This document shows, in pieces, positions 31,655 to 64,000 of a stretch of 64,000 nt of DNA (position 1 is its first letter; each line of letters begins with the position of its first letter). The position numbers were made by a program, and so were the translations under genes. This DNA is from a virus: the UHGV virus genome UHGV-2111131; one strand, written 5' to 3'. The notes beneath the pieces were generated by a model, which made no database searches, was not told where the DNA came from, and worked only from the letters and a program-made list of their open reading frames with translations.

Positions 31655-31834
31655 ATGGCACGTAAATACAACAAATTGTCCCGTAGAGCGTTAAAGATGC
31701 TTCTTGATGGCGTGAGTCGCCGCGAGGTAAAGCAATACCTGGTTGGTAAGCAAATTGGTGCCAGGACCGCTATTGCTGTGTTATGCCGTCAGGAAATGGT
31801 TGTGCTTAAACAGAGAATGCCGGGCAGCAGATAA
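31655..31834 (+). CDS. pdcA: Small basic protein, 59 aa
   Basis: ORF immediately after doc; name by P1 synteny as recalled. Confidence 0.4.
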   Translation: MARKYNKLSRRALKMLLDGVSRREVKQYLVGKQIGARTAIAVLCRQEMVVLKQRMPGSR

Positions 31835-31861
31835 AGCCCAATCAGTGATGAAAGGTGTGAT

Positions 31862-32905
31862 GTGAAAGCCGTAATTACTCCCTTTGTACAAAAAGAGCTT
31901 GGCGTCGCCACATTCAAAGTGGATCAGGAAGTCAGAAAGCTGGTGGAGGCTGGCCGTAAATTTATTATGGAGCCGGTGCCGCGTGAGTTAATCGAGCACA
32001 TGGACGACGGCCTCGTTGTTTCCGAGCAAACTATGGCAACAAATGAGGCGTTGCAGCCGTTTTTTAACAGCGATGAACTGTTTCGCCGTATTGGTGGAAT
32101 TGACGCGCTGGTGGCGTGGTTGCGTAGGAAAGAGGGTCAATGCCAGGCCGCAGATCGTAGTTGGTGTGACAACCATATTGTCCACGCTGAACGAGACAAT
32201 AGCGCGGTGTTGTTGTGCTGGCATCACGATAACCATTACCGGATGCGTGGTTTTAATGAGCTGAAAGAAACGCTGCATAATAATCGCGTTAACTGGATAC
32301 TGGATGTCGCCCGTCAGGAAATGGGGCTTTCAGATGGCCATGATTTAAGTATTCAGGAACTGTGCTGGTGGGCTTTCATGCGCAACATGATGCACCTGAT
32401 GCCGGAAGAAGTTTGCCGTATATCAATAAATAAGATGAAAGCCGCAACGCAGGATAGCGGACCTCTGAAAGAGGCAGATATTCGCCCGTATGACGATCGC
32501 GCTACAGCATATGTTCAGATGATGGAAGAACGCGCCGCGCCGATGCGTGCAAAAGTATGCTCTGTGGATGTTGACTCCGACCCTGGCATGGCGCATTTCA
32601 AAATACCAAAACTGCAATCGCTAAAATTACCTGAGTACATGGACTTTGTTGCTTCCCGTCCATGCTGTGGGTGTGGAGCGGCGGGAGCTGGCGCTCACAT
32701 TACGCCTTATATCGTTCGTCATAGTCGATTATGCGCGCATGACATTTACGCAATTCCTCTGTGCCAGTCATGCCAGCGTGATATTGAGCGTGACCGCGAT
32801 AATTGGGAGAAGACGCACGGTAGGCTGGCGATGCATCAACGATTGTTCTTTGATTACGCGCTTGGAGTCGGCGCTATCACAAGTCACTCGTCGAGCGTTA
32901 GATAA
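31862..32905 (+). CDS. pdcB: Cys-rich protein, 347 aa
   Basis: Intact ORF; Cys clusters (RPCCGCG...LCQSCQ); name by synteny. Confidence 0.5.
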
Positions 32906-33531: not shown

Positions 33532-34725
33532 GTGACCTGGGACGATCACAAAAAGAATTTTGCTCGCCTGGCGCGAGATGGTGGTTACACCATCGCACAG
33601 TATGCCGCCGAGTTTAATCTTAACCCTAATACCGCACGTCGTTATCTCCGTGCCTTCAAAGAAGACACCAGGACTGCGGACAGCCGCAAGCCAAATAAGC
33701 CAGTCAGGAAGCCACTAAAAAGCATGATCATTGATCACTCTAATGATCAACATGCAGGTGATCATATTGCGGCTGAAATAGCGGAAAAACAGAGAGTTAA
33801 TGCCGTTGTCAGTGCCGCAGTCGAGAATGCGAAGCGCCAAAATAAGCGCATAAATGATCGTTCAGATGATCATGACGTGATCACCCGCGCCCACCGGACC
33901 TTACGTGATCGCCTGGAACGCGACACCCTGGATGATGATGGTGAACGCTTTGAATTCGAAGCTGGCGATTACCTGATAGATAACGTTGAAGCGCGGAAGG
34001 CCGCGCGCGCTATGTTGCGTCGGTCCGGGGCCGATGTTCTGGAAACCACTCTTCTTGAAAAGTCTCTTTCTCATCTCCTTATGCTGGAGAACGCCAGGGA
34101 TACGTGTATTCGCCTGGTGCAGGAAATGCGCGATCAGCAAAAGGACGATGATGAAGGTACTCCGCCTGAATACCGTATCGCGAGCATGCTAAACAGCTGT
34201 TCCGCGCAGATAAGCAGCCTGATCAACACCATTTACAGCATCCGGAATAACTATCGAAAAGAAAGCCGGGAGGCGGAAAAGCACGCTTTGTCTATGGGGC
34301 AAGCTGGCATTGTTAAGCTGGCATACGAACGAAAGCGTGAAAATAACTGGTCAGTGCTGGAAGCAGCTGAATTCATCGAGGCGCATGGCGGGAAAGTGCC
34401 GCCCCTGATGCTGGAGCAAATCAAAGCCGATCTGCGTGCTCCGAAGACCAATACCGATGATGAGGAAAGGCAAACAGCCGTCGGTGGCCCTTCTCTTGAA
34501 GATCTGGACAAAGTTGCGCGAGAACGGGCCGCCAACCGCCGCGCCGATGCCGCATTGTGGATTGAGCAGCGTAGGGAAGAAATCGCCGATATCGTTGATA
34601 CAGGCGGTTATGGAGATGTTGATACTGAAGGTGTATCAAACGACCCATGGCTGGAACAAGACCTGGACGAAGACGAGGAGGAAGACGAAGAAGTTACCCG
34701 CAAGCTATACGGGGATGATGATTAA
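33532..34725 (+). CDS. pacA: Terminase small (pac-recognition) subunit, 397 aa, GTG start
   Basis: Contains the pac site; acidic C-terminus; coupled to pacB. Confidence 0.75.
33725..33883 (+). other. pac packaging site: four TGATCA hexamers (33725, 33732, 33744, 33759) and three TGATC(A/G) hexamers (33855, 33867, 33878)
   Basis: 4+3 hexamer arrangement, each containing a GATC Dam site, inside the 5' part of pacA, as described for P1 pac. Confidence 0.8.
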
Positions 34726-36211
34726 TGGCCAGAAGTTGCGTAACGGATCCACGTTGGCGCGAGCTGGTGGCGCTATATCGTTATGACTGGATTGCTGCCG
34801 CTGATGTTTTGTTCGGCAAAACACCTACCTGGCAGCAGGATCTGATTATTGAGTCTGTGCAGGAACAGGGTAGCAAGACATCTGTTTCGTCTGGTCACGG
34901 TACCGGGAAATCAGACATGACTTCTATCATGATCATGTTGTTCATAATCATGTATCCCGGTGCCCGCGCCATTATCGTTGCGAACAAAATTCAGCAGGTA
35001 ATGACCGGTATATTCAAGTACATCAAGATAAACTGGGCTACTGCCACCAGCCGTTTCCCATGGCTTGCTGATTATTTTGTTCTGACAGAAACCGCTTTCT
35101 ATGAGGTTACTGGTAAAGGTGTATGGACTGTAGTACCGAAGGGCTTTCGTCTGGGAAGTGAAGAAGCTCTCGCCGGTGAACACGCAGATCATCTTCTGTA
35201 TATTATCGATGAAGCCTCCGGTGTCAGTGATAGAGCTTTCGGTATCATCACCGGTGCTCTTACCGGACAGGATAACCGCATCTTATTACTGTCACAGCCT
35301 ACACGCCCAAGCGGCTATTTCTACGATACACACCATAAACTGGCCAAGCGTCCTGGTAACCCTGATGGCGTTTATACGGCGATCACGCTTAACAGTGAGG
35401 AATCACCGCTGGTAACGCCAGCATTTATCAAAATGAAGCTGGCGGAGTACGGCGGGCGNNNNNNNNNNCTATGTACATGATTAAGGTACGCGGCCTATTC
35501 CCTAAATCACAGGATGGCTTCCTTCTTGGACGTGATGAGGTTGAACGTGCAACGCGGCGGAAAGTCAAGATTGCCAAAGGATGGGGCTGGCTTGCATGTG
35601 TGGACGTTGCTGGTGGTACGGGACGGGATAAGTCCGTTATCAATATCATGATGGTGTCCGGCCAGCGAAATAAACGCCGTGTAATCAACTATCGAATGCT
35701 GGAATACACAGACGTTACAGAAACGCAGCTTGCCGCCAAAATTTTCGCAGAATGCAATCCTGAGCGATTCCCAAATATCACCATAGCGATAGACGGCGAT
35801 GGCTTGGGTAAAGCAACGGCGGATCTGATGTACGAGTATTATGGTATTACCGTACAGCGTATACGCTGGGGTAAAAAGATGCATAGCCGTGAAGATAAGA
35901 GCCTGTACTTTGATAAACGTGCTTATGCCAACGTTCAAGCCGCAGAGGCCGTAAAATCTGGTCGTATGAGACTGGATAAGGGTAATGAAACTATTGAGGA
36001 AGCGTCGAAAATCCCTGTAGGGATTAACTCCGCAGGTCAATGGAAGGTGATGAGTAAGGAGGATATGAAGAAAAAACTCAACCTGCACTCACCAGACCAT
36101 TGGGATACATATTGTTTCGCTATGCTGGCGGATTATGTTCCCCAGGATGAAGTGCTTAGCGTCGAAGACGAAGCGCAGGTTGATGAAGCTCTGGCATGGC
36201 TTAATGAATAA
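34725..36211 (+). CDS. pacB: Terminase large subunit, interrupted by a 10-N assembly gap (frame not preserved across the gap)
   Basis: Two ORF halves (34725..35480 and 35471..36211) on either side of the N-run. Confidence 0.65.
35459..35468. other. Assembly gap (run of 10 N)
   Basis: Literal n characters in the sequence. Confidence 1.
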
Positions 36212-39766: not shown

Positions 39767-39783
39767 ATTGCTCTAATTGATTG
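39767..39783 (+). promoter_or_regulatory. C1 operator-like site ATTGCTCTAATTGATTG followed by TGCTATAAT (-10-like)
   Basis: Operator core overlapping a promoter-like element upstream of ref. Confidence 0.5.
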
Positions 39784-39850
39784 CTATAATTGAGCCGCAG
39801 TTTTTGTCAACTACGAAGACGTTGCCATTACTTCACTCCTTGACATCATT

Positions 39851-39877
39851 GGCGGCCATTAGGCCGCCTTTTTTTTG
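39851..39877 (+). terminator. Hairpin GGCGGCC-ATTA-GGCCGCC followed by T8
   Basis: Perfect 7-bp GC stem plus T-run just before the ref start (terminator/attenuator). Confidence 0.6.
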
Positions 39878-39881
39878 CCAT

Positions 39882-40442
39882 ATGAAAACAATCGAACAAA
39901 AACTTGAACAGCGCCGCGAGTGGCAGAAGGCAGCCAGAGAACGAGCGATCGCTCGGCAACGGGAAAAGTTGGCTGACCCCGCCTGGCGAGAATCGCAATA
40001 TCAGAAAATGCGGGATTCTATCGACCGCCGTATCGCTAAACAGAAAGAGTGCCCACCAGCCAGCAAAACGCGGAAAAGTGCGGTAAAAATAAAATCTCGT
40101 GGCTTGAAGGGACGAACACCGACGGCAGAGGAACGGCACATAGCCAATGCTCTTGGCGCTCTCCCCTGCATTGCGTGCTATATGCATGGAGTAATATCTG
40201 AAGAGGTGTCTCTGCACCATATTTCCGGTCGTACCGCGCCTGGTTGTCACAAAAAGCAATTGCCACTTTGTAGATGGCACCACCAGCATGCAGCACCGGC
40301 TGAAGTAAGAGCAAAATACCCCTGGCTGGTCCCTGTTCATGCCGATGGTGTGGTTGGAGGCAAGAAAGAATTCACCCTGCTGAACAAGTCAGAGATGGAG
40401 TTACTGGCTGACGCCTATGAGATGGCAAACATCATGCACTAA
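39882..40442 (+). CDS. ref: HNH-family endonuclease (recombination enhancement function), 186 aa
   Basis: HNH-like Cys/His region (CIACYMHG...HHISG...CRWHH); size and position match P1 Ref. Confidence 0.8.
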   Translation: MKTIEQKLEQRREWQKAARERAIARQREKLADPAWRESQYQKMRDSIDRRIAKQKECPPASKTRKSAVKIKSRGLKGRTPTAEERHIANALGALPCIACYMHGVISEEVSLHHISGRTAPGCHKKQLPLCRWHHQHAAPAEVRAKYPWLVPVHADGVVGGKKEFTLLNKSEMELLADAYEMANIMH

Positions 40443-40631
40443 TAAATATATTATTTTTAATGATAAATGATTGACAACTGACAAGTGACTTCAGTCAGAA
40501 TCATCACATGCCCGGTACGGATGGATCCCTTTTCAAATATTCCATGGACGGCACAGTCTGAGTACCGGGCGCTACCTTCAGTTGTATTGCTAAGCCGCCG
40601 CTGGTGGCTTTTCTTTTTTGTAGGGGGCGCT

Positions 40632-41273
40632 ATGGATAAGAAAATATGCGTTGTTTCGATGAGCGTCGGCAAACCGGCGTCAATGACTGCTGCATGGATC
40701 AATAACGAGCTGATAATGGCTGAGCGGACCAGCTACCCTGAACGCCGCCGCGATATGGAACTCCAGCTGCTGCGCGAATTGCGAGAAAAAGAGGAAAAGG
40801 GTTTTATCGTGCTGGTGGAAGAGGAAAACAGCTTTATTACTGGTCGAGTTGGCCAGCGTGTAAGGTTGCGCGATCCCTTCATGAACGGCAGGCCGGTACT
40901 AATTGAGGCAATGCAGATTTATAAGGAGCTGGAACGCCAGAAAGCAATCAAGTTACCGCGCAAGGAATCCGGCAAATACATCCTCCACCAAAGCATCTTC
41001 GATTCCGAACACGATAAAAAAGGCGATGAATTTTTCAACATCAACTGGAGCGAAATAACGACAGAGCATGTTCTGACGTTACTATGTTGCTTTGCGACGG
41101 AATACAACAACGTTGCCAGCGCCGACTACATCAGGGCAATGGCAGGAGAAGTTGATGCCCGCCAGGAATCATCGTTACTAAGCCCTCTGATTAACATAAT
41201 TCGCGGAACCCAAACACTGGCACAAAAACGGGTGCCTAAAGGGGAGTTAACTGGAAAAGGAAATTATCTATAA
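40632..41273 (+). CDS. mat: Hypothetical protein, 213 aa
   Basis: Position after ref; name by synteny as recalled. Confidence 0.5.
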   Translation: MDKKICVVSMSVGKPASMTAAWINNELIMAERTSYPERRRDMELQLLRELREKEEKGFIVLVEEENSFITGRVGQRVRLRDPFMNGRPVLIEAMQIYKELERQKAIKLPRKESGKYILHQSIFDSEHDKKGDEFFNINWSEITTEHVLTLLCCFATEYNNVASADYIRAMAGEVDARQESSLLSPLINIIRGTQTLAQKRVPKGELTGKGNYL

Positions 41274-41329: not shown

Positions 41330-42637
41330 ATGAGCGAATATGTTGAGTTAGCATACGCTGCCGCTACAAGCAGGCTTTGTCTATTTACCGGGACTGGCTT
41401 TTCAAAGGCAGTCTCGAACGGTGAAGCTCCAACGTGGAAGGAACTATTAAAAAAAGTTTGCAGCAAAGTTCACAATGCCAAAAAGTTGGAAGACACGTTA
41501 TTCCCTGATGATAAACCACCAGCACTGAGTCTTGAAGAAGCCGCACAAATACTATCTTTGAAGCTCAATATTGAGGGTAAGTCGATTTATGATGAAATTG
41601 TTGACATCATATCTCCAATTCAACTTGGAGAAGACATATCAAATATAAAAGATTTTTTCCAAAAAAACTCATTCCGTGTCATTACAACAAATTATGACAA
41701 GTTGGCTGAATGCTTGGTTGGAGATGAAAGTGTGCAGTCTATCACGCCCGGTCTGCCAATTCCAAAGTATCCATCCAAGGTGAAAATATATCATGTTCAT
41801 GGTTCTATTGATTCGCCAAAAAATATGATTGTCACTTCAGATGATTACTTCAGATTTATAAATTCCGATACTTATTTTTCACGAAAACTTAGTACGATGC
41901 TGCATGAAAATACAGTTGCGATATTAGGGTATTCTTTAAGCGACACAAATCTTAAAGCAATTATAAATGACTATAAAAAATTTTCGAAAAATAATGCCCT
42001 GTGCTCTAATATCTTTTTGATATCTCGCAACAAAGTAAGTCAAGATATGAAGGATTATTACTTCTATTGCTTTGGTATAAGGGTAATTGACAATACAGAA
42101 ATAGATTGTTTCTTTAGTCGATTAAGTTATAAGATTTCTCTCATTAAAGACATCATTGAAAGAGCGCGCGAAAATATCAGAAAAGTTGTTTCGGGGGCTT
42201 ACACTTATAAAAATGAATATCTTAAATTAGAGGATTCATTTTATCAAATTATATCATCAATTATATCGGAAGGTTTAGATTGGAATGATGATAAAGTCGT
42301 TTCTCTTTTCGAAAGGATAATAGAAAAAAAGAGAAAGTTAACAAGGAATAACGGAGCGTGGGAGCAATATGAACAGTTGGCAAAATGGCTTATATATTTT
42401 GGAAGCATCATAGAGGTTAGCAATACTAAGTATGAAAAAACATATTTAGACGCAGTTGAATACTCGATGGGTCATATGAGTAAAGAAAGGAATTGGGGAG
42501 TTTCTTGGCATGCTTACAGAGCTTGGGAAACACGATGGCCTGCAATAATTGCCTCAAATAGATTAATGATAAAAAACCACATTGAAACATTAGGCACCTT
42601 GAAGGACGCCAACCTTATAGTTAAGAATATAGTGTAA
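41330..42637 (+). CDS. SIR2-like (SIR2_2/DSR-type) NAD-binding/NADase domain protein with uncharacterised helical C-terminal domain, 435 aa; candidate defense gene
   Basis: GTGFS (res 21-25) with P-W just after, TTNYD (119-123, N121 codon at 41690..41692) and YHVHGS (H157 codon at 41798..41800); GGAG RBS; strongly AT-rich relative to flanks. Confidence 0.75.
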   Translation: MSEYVELAYAAATSRLCLFTGTGFSKAVSNGEAPTWKELLKKVCSKVHNAKKLEDTLFPDDKPPALSLEEAAQILSLKLNIEGKSIYDEIVDIISPIQLGEDISNIKDFFQKNSFRVITTNYDKLAECLVGDESVQSITPGLPIPKYPSKVKIYHVHGSIDSPKNMIVTSDDYFRFINSDTYFSRKLSTMLHENTVAILGYSLSDTNLKAIINDYKKFSKNNALCSNIFLISRNKVSQDMKDYYFYCFGIRVIDNTEIDCFFSRLSYKISLIKDIIERARENIRKVVSGAYTYKNEYLKLEDSFYQIISSIISEGLDWNDDKVVSLFERIIEKKRKLTRNNGAWEQYEQLAKWLIYFGSIIEVSNTKYEKTYLDAVEYSMGHMSKERNWGVSWHAYRAWETRWPAIIASNRLMIKNHIETLGTLKDANLIVKNIV

Positions 42638-62117: not shown

Positions 62118-62443
62118 TTCCCGCCTCCCTTTTTCACCAAACTTGTAAGAACATTCAGAATGCTATCGATATTCACTCGTTTCATCCCTGAAATCACCTC
62201 ATGACCGTTATTGCTGGCTATCGTTACCATTAAGTACGTAATTGATAACTCCCAGCCCTCGTGTTGCCCCAATAGGTACGCCACCGCGCCAGCTGTCACT
62301 GCAACAAAGATCTCCGTAACCAATCCCAACAAATTGCCAGACTGGCGACCGTCTCGGACATCCATCAGGAACGTGCCTATCCCACCAATTACTGAAAGCA
62401 GGAACGCAATAGCAACTGGAGCTAATTCCTGTGTGTCAAGCAC
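62114..62443 (-). CDS. Holin-like small membrane protein, 109 aa
   Basis: Three hydrophobic segments plus charged C-terminus. Confidence 0.5.
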   Translation of the reverse strand: MLDTQELAPVAIAFLLSVIGGIGTFLMDVRDGRQSGNLLGLVTEIFVAVTAGAVAYLLGQHEGWELSITYLMVTIASNNGHEVISGMKRVNIDSILNVLTSLVKKGGGK

Positions 62444-62510
62444 AAGTTCCCTCCTACGTTGTCAGGAGGTAATGGTATGCAAAGTAACTTCTCAACCGGT
62501 CATTTGTTGC

Positions 62511-62792
62511 TTAAGAGGCATTTCTATTGAGGTACGAATCGATAATCCTTTGTGACTTTTCAAGAATGAGCTTGTTATTGATGCTGCAAATAATAGTCAC
62601 GCAATTCTGAAGACTTTCATCCATACCCTTATATTCCGCGAAATACATGCCTATAAAGCCTGCAAGTACGGCAGCAATACACTCGGCCATCAATTGCCTG
62701 CATGACGCTTCGTAACGTTTTTCACGAACCCCATTCAGAAACGAATGCACGCCTCCAAGGATGGTTATAAAAAATATGGTTGAATCAAACAT
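62511..62792 (-). CDS. Holin-like small membrane protein, 93 aa from ATG 62792
   Basis: Hydrophobic segments (FFITILGGV, IAAVLAGFIGMYF). Confidence 0.45.
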   Translation of the reverse strand: MFDSTIFFITILGGVHSFLNGVREKRYEASCRQLMAECIAAVLAGFIGMYFAEYKGMDESLQNCVTIICSINNKLILEKSQRIIDSYLNRNAS

Positions 62793-62919
62793 TAAAGTAC
62801 CCCCGCTTTTCAATAAAACATCATTGGGGCACGGTATGCACTTTGTGATTTCCACACACACTGGTTTCTGTTAATCAAAATCCGCAGCTTGCTATAAATA
62901 ACGATAGTGAGCAGAAAAT

Positions 62920-63145
62920 ATGCTAATAGGCTATGTACGCGTATCAACAAATGAACAAAACACTGCTTTGCAACGAAATGCCCTTGAAAGCGCAGGATGT
63001 GAGCTAATTTTTGAGGATAAGGCGAGCGGCAAAAAGGCTGAACGACCAGAGTTAAAAAATGCTTTTGAGAGGTGACACTCTGGTCGAATGAAAGTTAGAT
63101 TGGCTTGGATGCAGTATGCGCTCGCTCTTGAAGCATGAACAGTAA
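62920..63145 (+). pseudogene. cin: Degraded serine invertase (cin-like): intact N-terminal 51 codons, then frameshifted remnant
   Basis: MLIGYVRVSTNEQNTALQRNAL...FEDK matches the Cin/Hin/Gin N-terminus; in-frame stop at 63073..63075; shifted-frame remnants GDTLV and KLDWLG; no homology after about 63145. Confidence 0.7.
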
Positions 63146-63210
63146 TCATCTTATCTGGATGCACTGGAACCAGTCGTTACTTCCAGCGCTCCAGATATTT
63201 TTTTAATGGG

Positions 63211-63621
63211 CTACGCCTCCGGGAACGCTGGCCAATTGACATCTGGTGCAGTGCTGGTATCCGTTGCGGTCACCGCATCGATATAATCCAACACAGCGTT
63301 AAGACGGGTGGTTTCAGCCTGCGTAAGATTCCGTCCGGCCTGTAATTTCAGTTGAATAAGACTAATGGAAGCCATTGCGGTATCAATCAGCGACTGTTTT
63401 TTCTGTTCAGCGTCAGCTACCAGTTCATCATGAGAACGTTCCGGAGTGGGTGGTGCAGTAAATCCCCCGTCTGAATAAACCCAGCCGATTCCGGGCTGCT
63501 CACTGATATCAGAAATATTAATGAGCTGCTGATTATCCGGCACTGTGAATTCAGCCTCGCCATCCCAGACAATGACATTCACAACCATCCCATTTTCAAT
63601 AACTGCATATGACGCATTCAT
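63211..63621 (-). CDS. Tail fibre assembly protein (Tfa/U-like), 136 aa
   Basis: C-terminal TDTSTAPDVNWPAFPEA matches the conserved Tfa C-terminus. Confidence 0.75.
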   Translation of the reverse strand: MNASYAVIENGMVVNVIVWDGEAEFTVPDNQQLINISDISEQPGIGWVYSDGGFTAPPTPERSHDELVADAEQKKQSLIDTAMASISLIQLKLQAGRNLTQAETTRLNAVLDYIDAVTATDTSTAPDVNWPAFPEA

Positions 63622-64000
63622 TATGCAAACTCCTCGATAATACAAATCCCAGCAGCACCTTTCCCGCCTGTCATACTGGTTCCGCTATAACCGGCATCGT
63701 ATGCGCCACCGCCACCTGAACCATATGCCTTACCACTAACACCACCGCCAGCGCCTGCGCGTCCACCGCCGCCCCAGTGCGATGTTCCGCCTTCACCGCT
63801 GACGCCGATATTTCCGGACTGACCGTCGCCTCCATGTCCACCAGTGATGCGGATATCGCCAGTGCTCGGCACACCTCCGTTACCGCCGTTTGTGTTTGTA
63901 ACTCCCACTTTCCCGCCACCTGCGCCACCAGGAGCAATTAACGATGCGAATACGCTATTCCCGCCACTGGTGCCGTTCGTCGCACTAACACCACCGGCCC
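63621..64000 (-). CDS. Tail fibre protein, glycine-rich C-terminal part (partial; N-terminus beyond window edge)
   Basis: Gly-rich repeats; TAATG coupling to the assembly gene. Confidence 0.65.
   Translation of the reverse strand, partial: AGGVSATNGTSGGNSVFASLIAPGGAGGGKVGVTNTNGGNGGVPSTGDIRITGGHGGDGQSGNIGVSGEGGTSHWGGGGRAGAGGGVSGKAYGSGGGGAYDAGYSGTSMTGGKGAAGICIIEEFA

Follow-up and report, generated by a model that had tools for sequence, protein, structure and literature searches.

The right-hand end of the 64,000-nucleotide viral sequence analysed here (UHGV-2111131, referred to below as the window) carries, in this order, a lydC-like holin gene, the remains of the promoter region of the invertase gene cin, the beginning of cin itself with a predicted recombinational enhancer inside it, the fossil 3' end of a tail-fibre assembly gene, an intact tail-fibre assembly gene tfa and the 3' end of the tail-fibre gene S (Table 1). 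Further to the left, the minus-strand genes follow the order ddrB, ddrA, darA, hdf, lydB, lydA and lydC that is known from P1, and this synteny with P1 ends at lydC. At the nucleotide level, positions 62400-63059 share 92.9% identity with positions 31140-31799 of P1, and over its whole length the window is collinear with NZ_CP195583.1, a circular plasmid of 94 kb. Synteny and nucleotide identity thus place it among the P1-like (Punavirus) elements.

Table 1. Features of the cin remnant and its neighbourhood, in window coordinates.
Feature	Position	Strand	Basis or remark
lydC-like holin gene, left neighbour of the remnant	62511-62792	-	282-nt CDS at the equivalent position in CP063718.1
Remains of two predicted cin promoters and ribosome-binding site	62798-62911	+	position-by-position comparison with the P1 annotation
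P2cin, predicted promoter	-35: 62798-62803; -10: 62819-62824	+	
P1cin, predicted promoter	-35: 62849-62854; -10: 62876-62881	+	
cin ribosome-binding site	62909-62911	+	
cin-derived stretch	62920-63120	+	lesions: 11-nt deletion at 63059/63060, TGG to TGA at 63089-63091, truncation after 63120
51-codon ORF with TGA stop	62920-63075	+	codons 1-43 as in P1 Cin; tail out of frame
Recombinational enhancer of Cin-mediated inversion, orphan, predicted	62938-63009	.	69 of 72 bases identical to P1 (P1 feature 31678-31749)
Junction filler, 13 nt, no assignable homology	63121-63133	.	found only in stub-bearing plasmids
Fossil 3' end of a convergent alternative tail-fibre assembly gene (tfa'/U')	63134-63210	+	alignments with 500465-1 and KP12
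Tail-fibre assembly gene tfa (U analogue), intact, 136 aa	63211-63621	-	Caudo_TAP, E 2.9e-22; CDS in CP063718.1
Tail-fibre gene S, 3' end, glycine-rich C-terminal domain	63621-64000	-	runs off the window

The cin-derived stretch was delimited by blastn and by alignments with the intact cin genes of P1 and of the plasmid pSBF45b, and corresponds on the plus strand to nucleotides 1-212 of P1 cin minus 11 nucleotides. When the P1 cin promoter region together with cin nucleotides 1-212 was compared with the window by blastn, positions 62812-63120 were matched with 281 identities in 320 positions (88%, E 2e-117), and a tblastn search with P1 Cin as the query also gave a match at the stub (E 7e-26); the same search detected no homology to the 3' part of cin anywhere in the 64-kb window. 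The 51-aa ORF matches the Pfam Resolvase profile (E 8.3e-13) from position 2 to position 57 of 145, and only 56 of the 145 positions, or 39% of a catalytic domain of approximately 140 residues, are therefore present. No Pfam match to HTH_7 was found in the 51-aa ORF; the Cin protein of pSBF45b matches this profile with an E value of 2.3e-18. The identical sequence in NZ_CP195583.1 is labelled by PGAP as 'recombinase family protein; frameshifted; incomplete; missing C-terminus'. As far as can be judged from sequence comparison, the stretch is the 5' remnant of cin, an ordinary and already described pseudogene whose nucleotide sequence is homologous to a functional gene and whose disabling lesions have been passed on within a lineage.

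Alignment with the cin genes of P1 and pSBF45b shows that 11 nucleotides, which read GGTACTCCGTA in P1, are absent between positions 63059 and 63060. Because of this deletion, the last five codons of the ORF (NAFER) and the TGA at 63073-63075 are out of the cin frame. The first 43 codons are identical to P1 Cin and include the catalytic-serine motif YVRVST, and Cin-like codons reach as far as codon 46. A preliminary description of the locus, made from the sequence alone, had recognised the cin N-terminus and placed YVRVS correctly, but the 51 clean Cin codons that it proposed are reduced to 43-46, and the TGA that it read as an in-frame stop exists but lies downstream of the deletion in a different frame. 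It had also noted the Cin-like peptides GDTLV and KLDWLG in another frame. Both are indeed found by tblastn and alignment in the +1 frame, and between them TGA has taken the place of the Trp codon in the VVWKLDRLG motif of the original frame. The third lesion is the truncation itself: homology to cin stops at nucleotide 212 of 561 by blastn, and the tblastn match extends to 63130, which is short of the end at approximately 63145 suggested before. The absent ~350 nucleotides of cin have not merely been shifted out of frame, as unrelated sequence stands in their place. With this end point, the partial Resolvase match and the missing HTH_7 match, the proposed loss of the C-terminal two-thirds of cin is confirmed.

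The earlier view that the stub is fused directly to tfa did not hold, as the tfa' fossil lies between them, and position 63211, which had been taken for the start of tfa, is the end of the stop codon of this minus-strand gene. Positions 63151-63210 are clearly homologous to the tfa' gene of P2-like invertible segments, apart from a 4-nt insertion, and the homology runs on into the overlapping 3' end of tfa. Positions 63134-63148 match a collinear upstream piece of the P2-like tfa' at 13 of 15 positions; this similarity is marginal (shuffle p ~0.004-0.01), and the segment is tentatively assigned to the same fossil. A sensitive blastn search with positions 63121-63150 against all PLSDB plasmids returned only plasmids that carry the stub. 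The 3' end of the pSBF45b U' gene was considered as a source of this segment and was rejected, the similarity being no better than that of shuffled sequence (p 0.56-0.86). The S protein of CP063718.1 contains the Pfam domains Phage_fiber_2, Gp34_trimer and Gly_rich_2. In NZ_CP195583.1, tfa is partial according to PGAP (7312-7722, N-terminus missing; compare 8812-9222 in CP063718.1) and S is 120 nucleotides shorter, and the boundary between the 3' end of S and the 5' end of tfa is therefore variable within the lineage.

As the window ends inside S, the fate of the alternative fibre set and of the cix sites was examined in two complete plasmids, CP063718.1 and NZ_CP195583.1, which are 99.9-100% identical to window positions 62400-64000. 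Each of them contains one tfa and one S gene (encoding 1554 aa in CP063718.1 and 1514 aa in NZ_CP195583.1), and the P1 tail genes follow directly. Neither Sv' nor U' is annotated in these two plasmids, and the tfa' 3' fossil of approximately 60-77 nucleotides is the sole trace of them. The exact 26-bp cixR sequence (TTCTCTTAAACCAAGGTATTGGATAA, 26/26 compared with P1) occurs once per locus and is located in frame inside S; judged by its position in the 100% identical relatives (S of 1554 aa), this orphan site lies approximately 2.9 kb past the end of the window. Homology to P1 is unbroken on the Sc side of the site and is lost approximately 75 nucleotides past it on the variable side. A search of the 14.4-kb NZ_CP195583.1 locus for cixL-like sites, with up to 6 mismatches allowed, gave no match. 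The window itself contains no cix site at up to 3 or up to 6 mismatches, because it ends before the Sc/Sv boundary. Two inverted crossover sites are present in P1 and pSBF45b, and cixR alone in CP063718.1 and NZ_CP195583.1. The only other recombinase in the NZ_CP195583.1 annotation is a Cre-like tyrosine integrase, and no other serine recombinase is annotated there.

The presence of a single tfa, S and cixR in both complete plasmids agrees with the earlier suggestion that the alternative fibre genes and one cix site had been lost. A locked C-segment switch, which the preliminary description had deduced from this, is likewise supported by the missing parts in the complete relatives, from which it would follow that inversion is abolished. 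An intact second cin copy, which would have changed this view, does not exist in the 64-kb window, where tblastn with P1 Cin found no second cin-like sequence, nor is there another serine invertase in NZ_CP195583.1.

The window contains a gap of 10 N and is therefore a draft, which gives some weight to the idea that the real molecule has an intact cin and that the frameshift or the truncation was introduced during sequencing or assembly. However, no other N run occurs in the window, and this one (35459-35468) is located 27 kb away in the terminase gene. For a survey of finished sequences, window positions 62900-63300 (401 nt) were used as a junction query, and matches were counted when at least 80% of the query was covered. 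By this measure, 44 plasmids of PLSDB carry the junction, as do 73 of the 5,426 complete E. coli genomes searched (~1.3%), 414 of which have any match to the query. Two finished plasmids, CP063718.1 and NZ_CP195583.1, one of them from veal in the USA and the other from calf dung in China, agree with the window at every one of the 401 positions. Six copies that diverge from one another by up to ~12% have the 11-nt deletion, the TGA and the breakpoint in common, which indicates one ancestral event, and the replacement of the missing 350 nucleotides by unrelated sequence also speaks against a simple sequencing error. The possibility of assembly errors, which had been raised together with the frameshifts, is effectively refuted by lesions that recur in dozens of independently finished assemblies, and the probability of an artefact is now negligible.

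Later changes are superimposed on the shared lesions. The plasmid pSvP1 has one additional A in an A-run, and pEC12-3 has approximately 18 extra nucleotides of the tfa' fossil and further 1-nt deletions. Because of such lineage-specific changes, the length of the residual ORF varies, and the six copies encode 51, 51, 51, 51, 49 and 44 aa. Three of the six, the JS316 plasmid, RHB43-C19 plasmid 3 and pN16EC0879-2 (positions 156-260 of each locus), contain the same stub, the same lesions and the same junction, but leftwards from cin nucleotide ~25-40 their sequence is unrelated and they have a different holin allele; a recombination breakpoint is therefore located inside the stub. No phage isolate with this arrangement was found in the phage collection, where the best coverage of window positions 62400-64000 was 45%.

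Several other features of the window were recorded. The pacB-like terminase gene is broken by the N run, which lies in the plus-strand ORFs 34725-35480 and 35471-36211, and a terminase stretch of approximately 1.5 kb is ~81% identical to NZ_CP195583.1, compared with 93-99% for most other parts of the window; this stretch may be a diverged allele or a mosaic patch. A plus-strand gene at 41330-42637 encodes a 435-aa SIR2_2 protein (Pfam E 1e-23) with partial PADLOC matches to the SIR2 domains of PDC-S25, ThsA and LmuA. It adjoins an unannotated 262-aa ORF and the gene for Ref, a RecA-dependent nuclease (neighbours at 40485-41273 and 39777-40442), and its product is a possible anti-phage defence cargo. 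Three tRNA genes are located on the plus strand at 7808-7961 and 9393-9468, with the assignments Asn-GTT, Thr-TGT and a CAT anticodon; the latter is called Met by ARAGORN and tRNA-Ile by RefSeq in the collinear region of NZ_CP195583.1.

The closest reference for the locus is P1 (NC_005856), in which cin (31660-32220) is followed by cixL, Sv'-U'-U-Sv and cixR. The window shares with P1 the position of cin after lydC, the promoter region, the start codon, the first 43 codons and the enhancer, and its complete relatives share the identical 26-bp cixR at the Sc/Sv boundary. In contrast to P1, cin of the window is cut at nucleotide 212 and contains the 11-nt deletion and a nonsense codon, and cixL, Sv' and U' are absent, as seen in the relatives. 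The Sv and tfa genes of the window lineage also differ from those of P1 and constitute a different, glycine-rich module of P2-like ancestry. The cin-Sv'-U'-U-S region as a whole is known as a hot spot of variation among P1-like plasmids (PMC9603915).

The remnant itself was encountered before in pSvP1 (MN510446), for which Venturini et al. (2019, Sci Rep; PMC6906374) reported a 'partial invertase orf', a probably non-functional switch and a restricted host range. The pSvP1 locus agrees with the window in the stub, its breakpoint, the 11-nt deletion, the TGA and the tfa' fossil, and is 94.8% identical to window positions 62400-64000. It differs by the extra A, which leads to a 49-aa ORF, and by large IS-mediated insertions elsewhere. 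With the pseudogene mark by PGAP and the pSvP1 description (PMC6906374), the cin remnant is already known. The pSvP1 paper (PMC6906374) covers neither the tfa' fossil nor the orphan cixR nor the prevalence, and together with the shared lesions and an intact relative these are what the present analysis adds.

The intact relative is pSBF45b (NZ_CP067234.1), which has an IncY P1-like backbone and shows 88% identity to the window in tfa and the distal part of S. It differs from the window in that a 186-aa Cin with both Resolvase and HTH_7 domains, cixL, cixR, Sv' and U' are all present, and its switch is presumably active. Since pSBF45b carries a related tfa and distal S within this segment, the fibre module of the window sits in an invertible context in the family. 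At ~9000-9100 on the minus strand, between the functional U' and the convergent tfa, pSBF45b also contains a decayed tfa' 3' fragment. It is a shorter version of the fossil in the window and was itself left behind when a cassette within the invertible segment was replaced at an earlier time.

A similar convergent arrangement of tfa' and tfa with overlapping 3' ends is found in P2-like phages, namely the Wadgaonvirus 500465-1 and a contig of Klebsiella phage KP12, which are 83-84% identical to window positions 63151-63396. These phages belong to different families, and their invertase is intact and located on the opposite strand at the far side of Sv'. A second class of stubs is represented by pEC25-AU-EG2 (NZ_CP195567.1, 7001-7901), where, as in the window, a non-functional 5' remnant of cin lies beside lydC. 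However, this remnant comprises cin nucleotide 1 to ~175, has TAG instead of TCA at codon 9 and is without the 11-nt deletion. Next to it comes an intact P2-like invertase gene of imported origin, which is encoded on the other strand and accompanied by a complete invertible fibre segment of its own. With both in place, switching has probably been kept in pEC25-AU-EG2. In the E. coli genome search, the second stub class accounts for approximately one third of the spread-sampled rows, as matches that cover only query positions 1-160, in which no feature is annotated. The isolated P1-like virion vB_EcoM-Ro157c2YLVW (MH160767.1) also resembles the window lineage, as it has no working cin and a single long fibre gene with tfa. 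It differs in that lydC and cin are wholly absent; its locus (5000-9900) runs from lydA through a truncated U', then a hypothetical gene and tfa, to the long fibre gene, and is another route to the loss of the switch.

The stub ORF, the ribosome-binding site and the enhancer are well kept in most copies, which could reflect recency or selection; substitutions in the residual ORF are few, and amino-acid changes are among them. If selection were responsible, the stub might encode a 51-aa peptide that interferes with resident invertases, provide the divergent lydC with a promoter or leader, or serve as an enhancer or linker in recombination with other elements. Such a function is suggested by the preserved start codon and ribosome-binding site, by the predicted Fis-dependent enhancer, which with 69 of 72 bases identical to P1 is probably still present in cis, and by the fact that two independent stub classes each retain the first ~140-210 nucleotides of cin beside lydC. 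The one isolated phage without cin is also without lydC, and there is a weak minus-strand promoter-like match at 62947-62920. Most observations nevertheless point in the opposite direction. The residual ORF varies between 44 and 51 aa across copies, and in the second stub class it stops at codon 9. In both predicted cin promoters the first position of the -10 hexamer has changed from T to C compared with P1, and a simple sigma-70 scan found no plus-strand promoter in positions 62798-62911. Moreover, in the three plasmids with a breakpoint inside the stub, the promoter region and the first ~25-40 nucleotides have been exchanged along with the holin allele. In serine recombinases, the dimerisation helix is located in the later part of the catalytic domain, and this part is missing from an ORF that covers only profile positions 2-57. 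Promoter-like and terminator-like matches at the stub region are no commoner than in shuffled sequences, and there is no Rfam match at E<=1 that would suggest a role as RNA. A retained function is therefore very improbable, and the 51-codon ORF appears to be functionless. A 77-aa antisense ORF at 62931-63164 was dismissed as spurious, as a comparable antisense ORF overlies the intact invertase of pEC25-AU-EG2 and it has no independent support.

Considering all these observations, we assign a probability of approximately 0.88 to the reading that the window derives from a P1-like (IncY-type) E. coli phage-plasmid in which the fibre switch has been destroyed and the cin remnant is non-functional, most likely via one deletion. 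The ancestor would have possessed the full P1-type order, i.e. cin, cixL, Sv' and tfa' on the plus strand, followed by the convergent tfa and Sv, cixR and Sc on the minus strand. One illegitimate recombination would then have joined cin at nucleotide ~212 to the last part of tfa', and what lay between, namely two-thirds of cin at its C-terminal end, cixL, Sv' and the greater part of tfa', would have been lost. Both the change from TGG to TGA and the loss of 11 nucleotides are likewise ancestral to the six compared copies, and the small lineage-specific indels would result from later decay. What would remain is a single S gene that is read through the orphan cixR into the glycine-rich Sv, plus the chaperone gene tfa. 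A convergent tfa' fossil is the expected residue of such an internal deletion, and we infer that a single deletion in situ took place. It counts against this account that the orphan cixR and the absence of Sv' and U' are seen in near-identical relatives and not in the window itself, and that the 13-nt junction filler is without assignable homology.

The same locked fibre and the same dead cin could also have arisen if a block from a P2-like prophage, consisting of the distal tfa', tfa and Sv, had replaced the P1 C segment by one crossover in or near conserved cix-adjacent sequence and one illegitimate joint inside cin. This is in line with the 83-84% identity of the tfa' fossil and the 3' end of tfa to the P2-like phages 500465-1 and KP12, and with the approximately 75 nucleotides beside cixR that are common to P1 and this lineage and would offer a possible crossover site. 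The second stub class, which clearly arose when an entire P2-like segment was imported together with its invertase, and the breakpoints inside the stub in three plasmids are also in line with it. On the other hand, the import requires two recombination events instead of one, and the intact P1-type invertible segment of pSBF45b already houses a related tfa and Sv as well as the tfa' fossil in a shorter form. A P1-like plasmid with an intact cin and a full-length P2-like tfa' beside this tfa was not found in PLSDB, and without such a direct ancestor the deletion in situ is not cleanly separable from the import, which we nevertheless consider unlikely.

A more speculative idea is that the cin 5' stub with its enhancer and the orphan cixR together serve as a conserved linker or landing pad for the capture or swap of fibre modules in P1-like plasmids. 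This could proceed by homologous recombination within the stub, or by rare events in which a resident Din-family invertase, such as Pin of a prophage, acts on the orphan cixR together with a site of another element. If true, it would explain why a 5' remnant of cin is kept at the module boundary in independent lineages, but we regard it as quite improbable.

Returning to the deletion in situ, an element that lacks the invertase, the partner site and the alternative cassette would be fixed on one fibre with a glycine-rich tip and thus on one receptor specificity, and its host range would be fixed as well. This conclusion is supported by engineered P1 particles with one fibre set and without cin, which are functional and differ in their host ranges (PMC13172314). 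A lineage found in ~1.3% of complete E. coli genomes would thus be fixed on one tail fibre and presumably on one receptor. This bears on the prediction of host ranges for P1-like elements that carry resistance genes, or on their use as transduction tools, and on little else. In more general terms, the locus shows the cin/C-segment region as a hot spot of recombination, where fibre modules are swapped and remnants of the invertase are left behind, a point that is already made in the literature (PMC6906374, PMC9603915).
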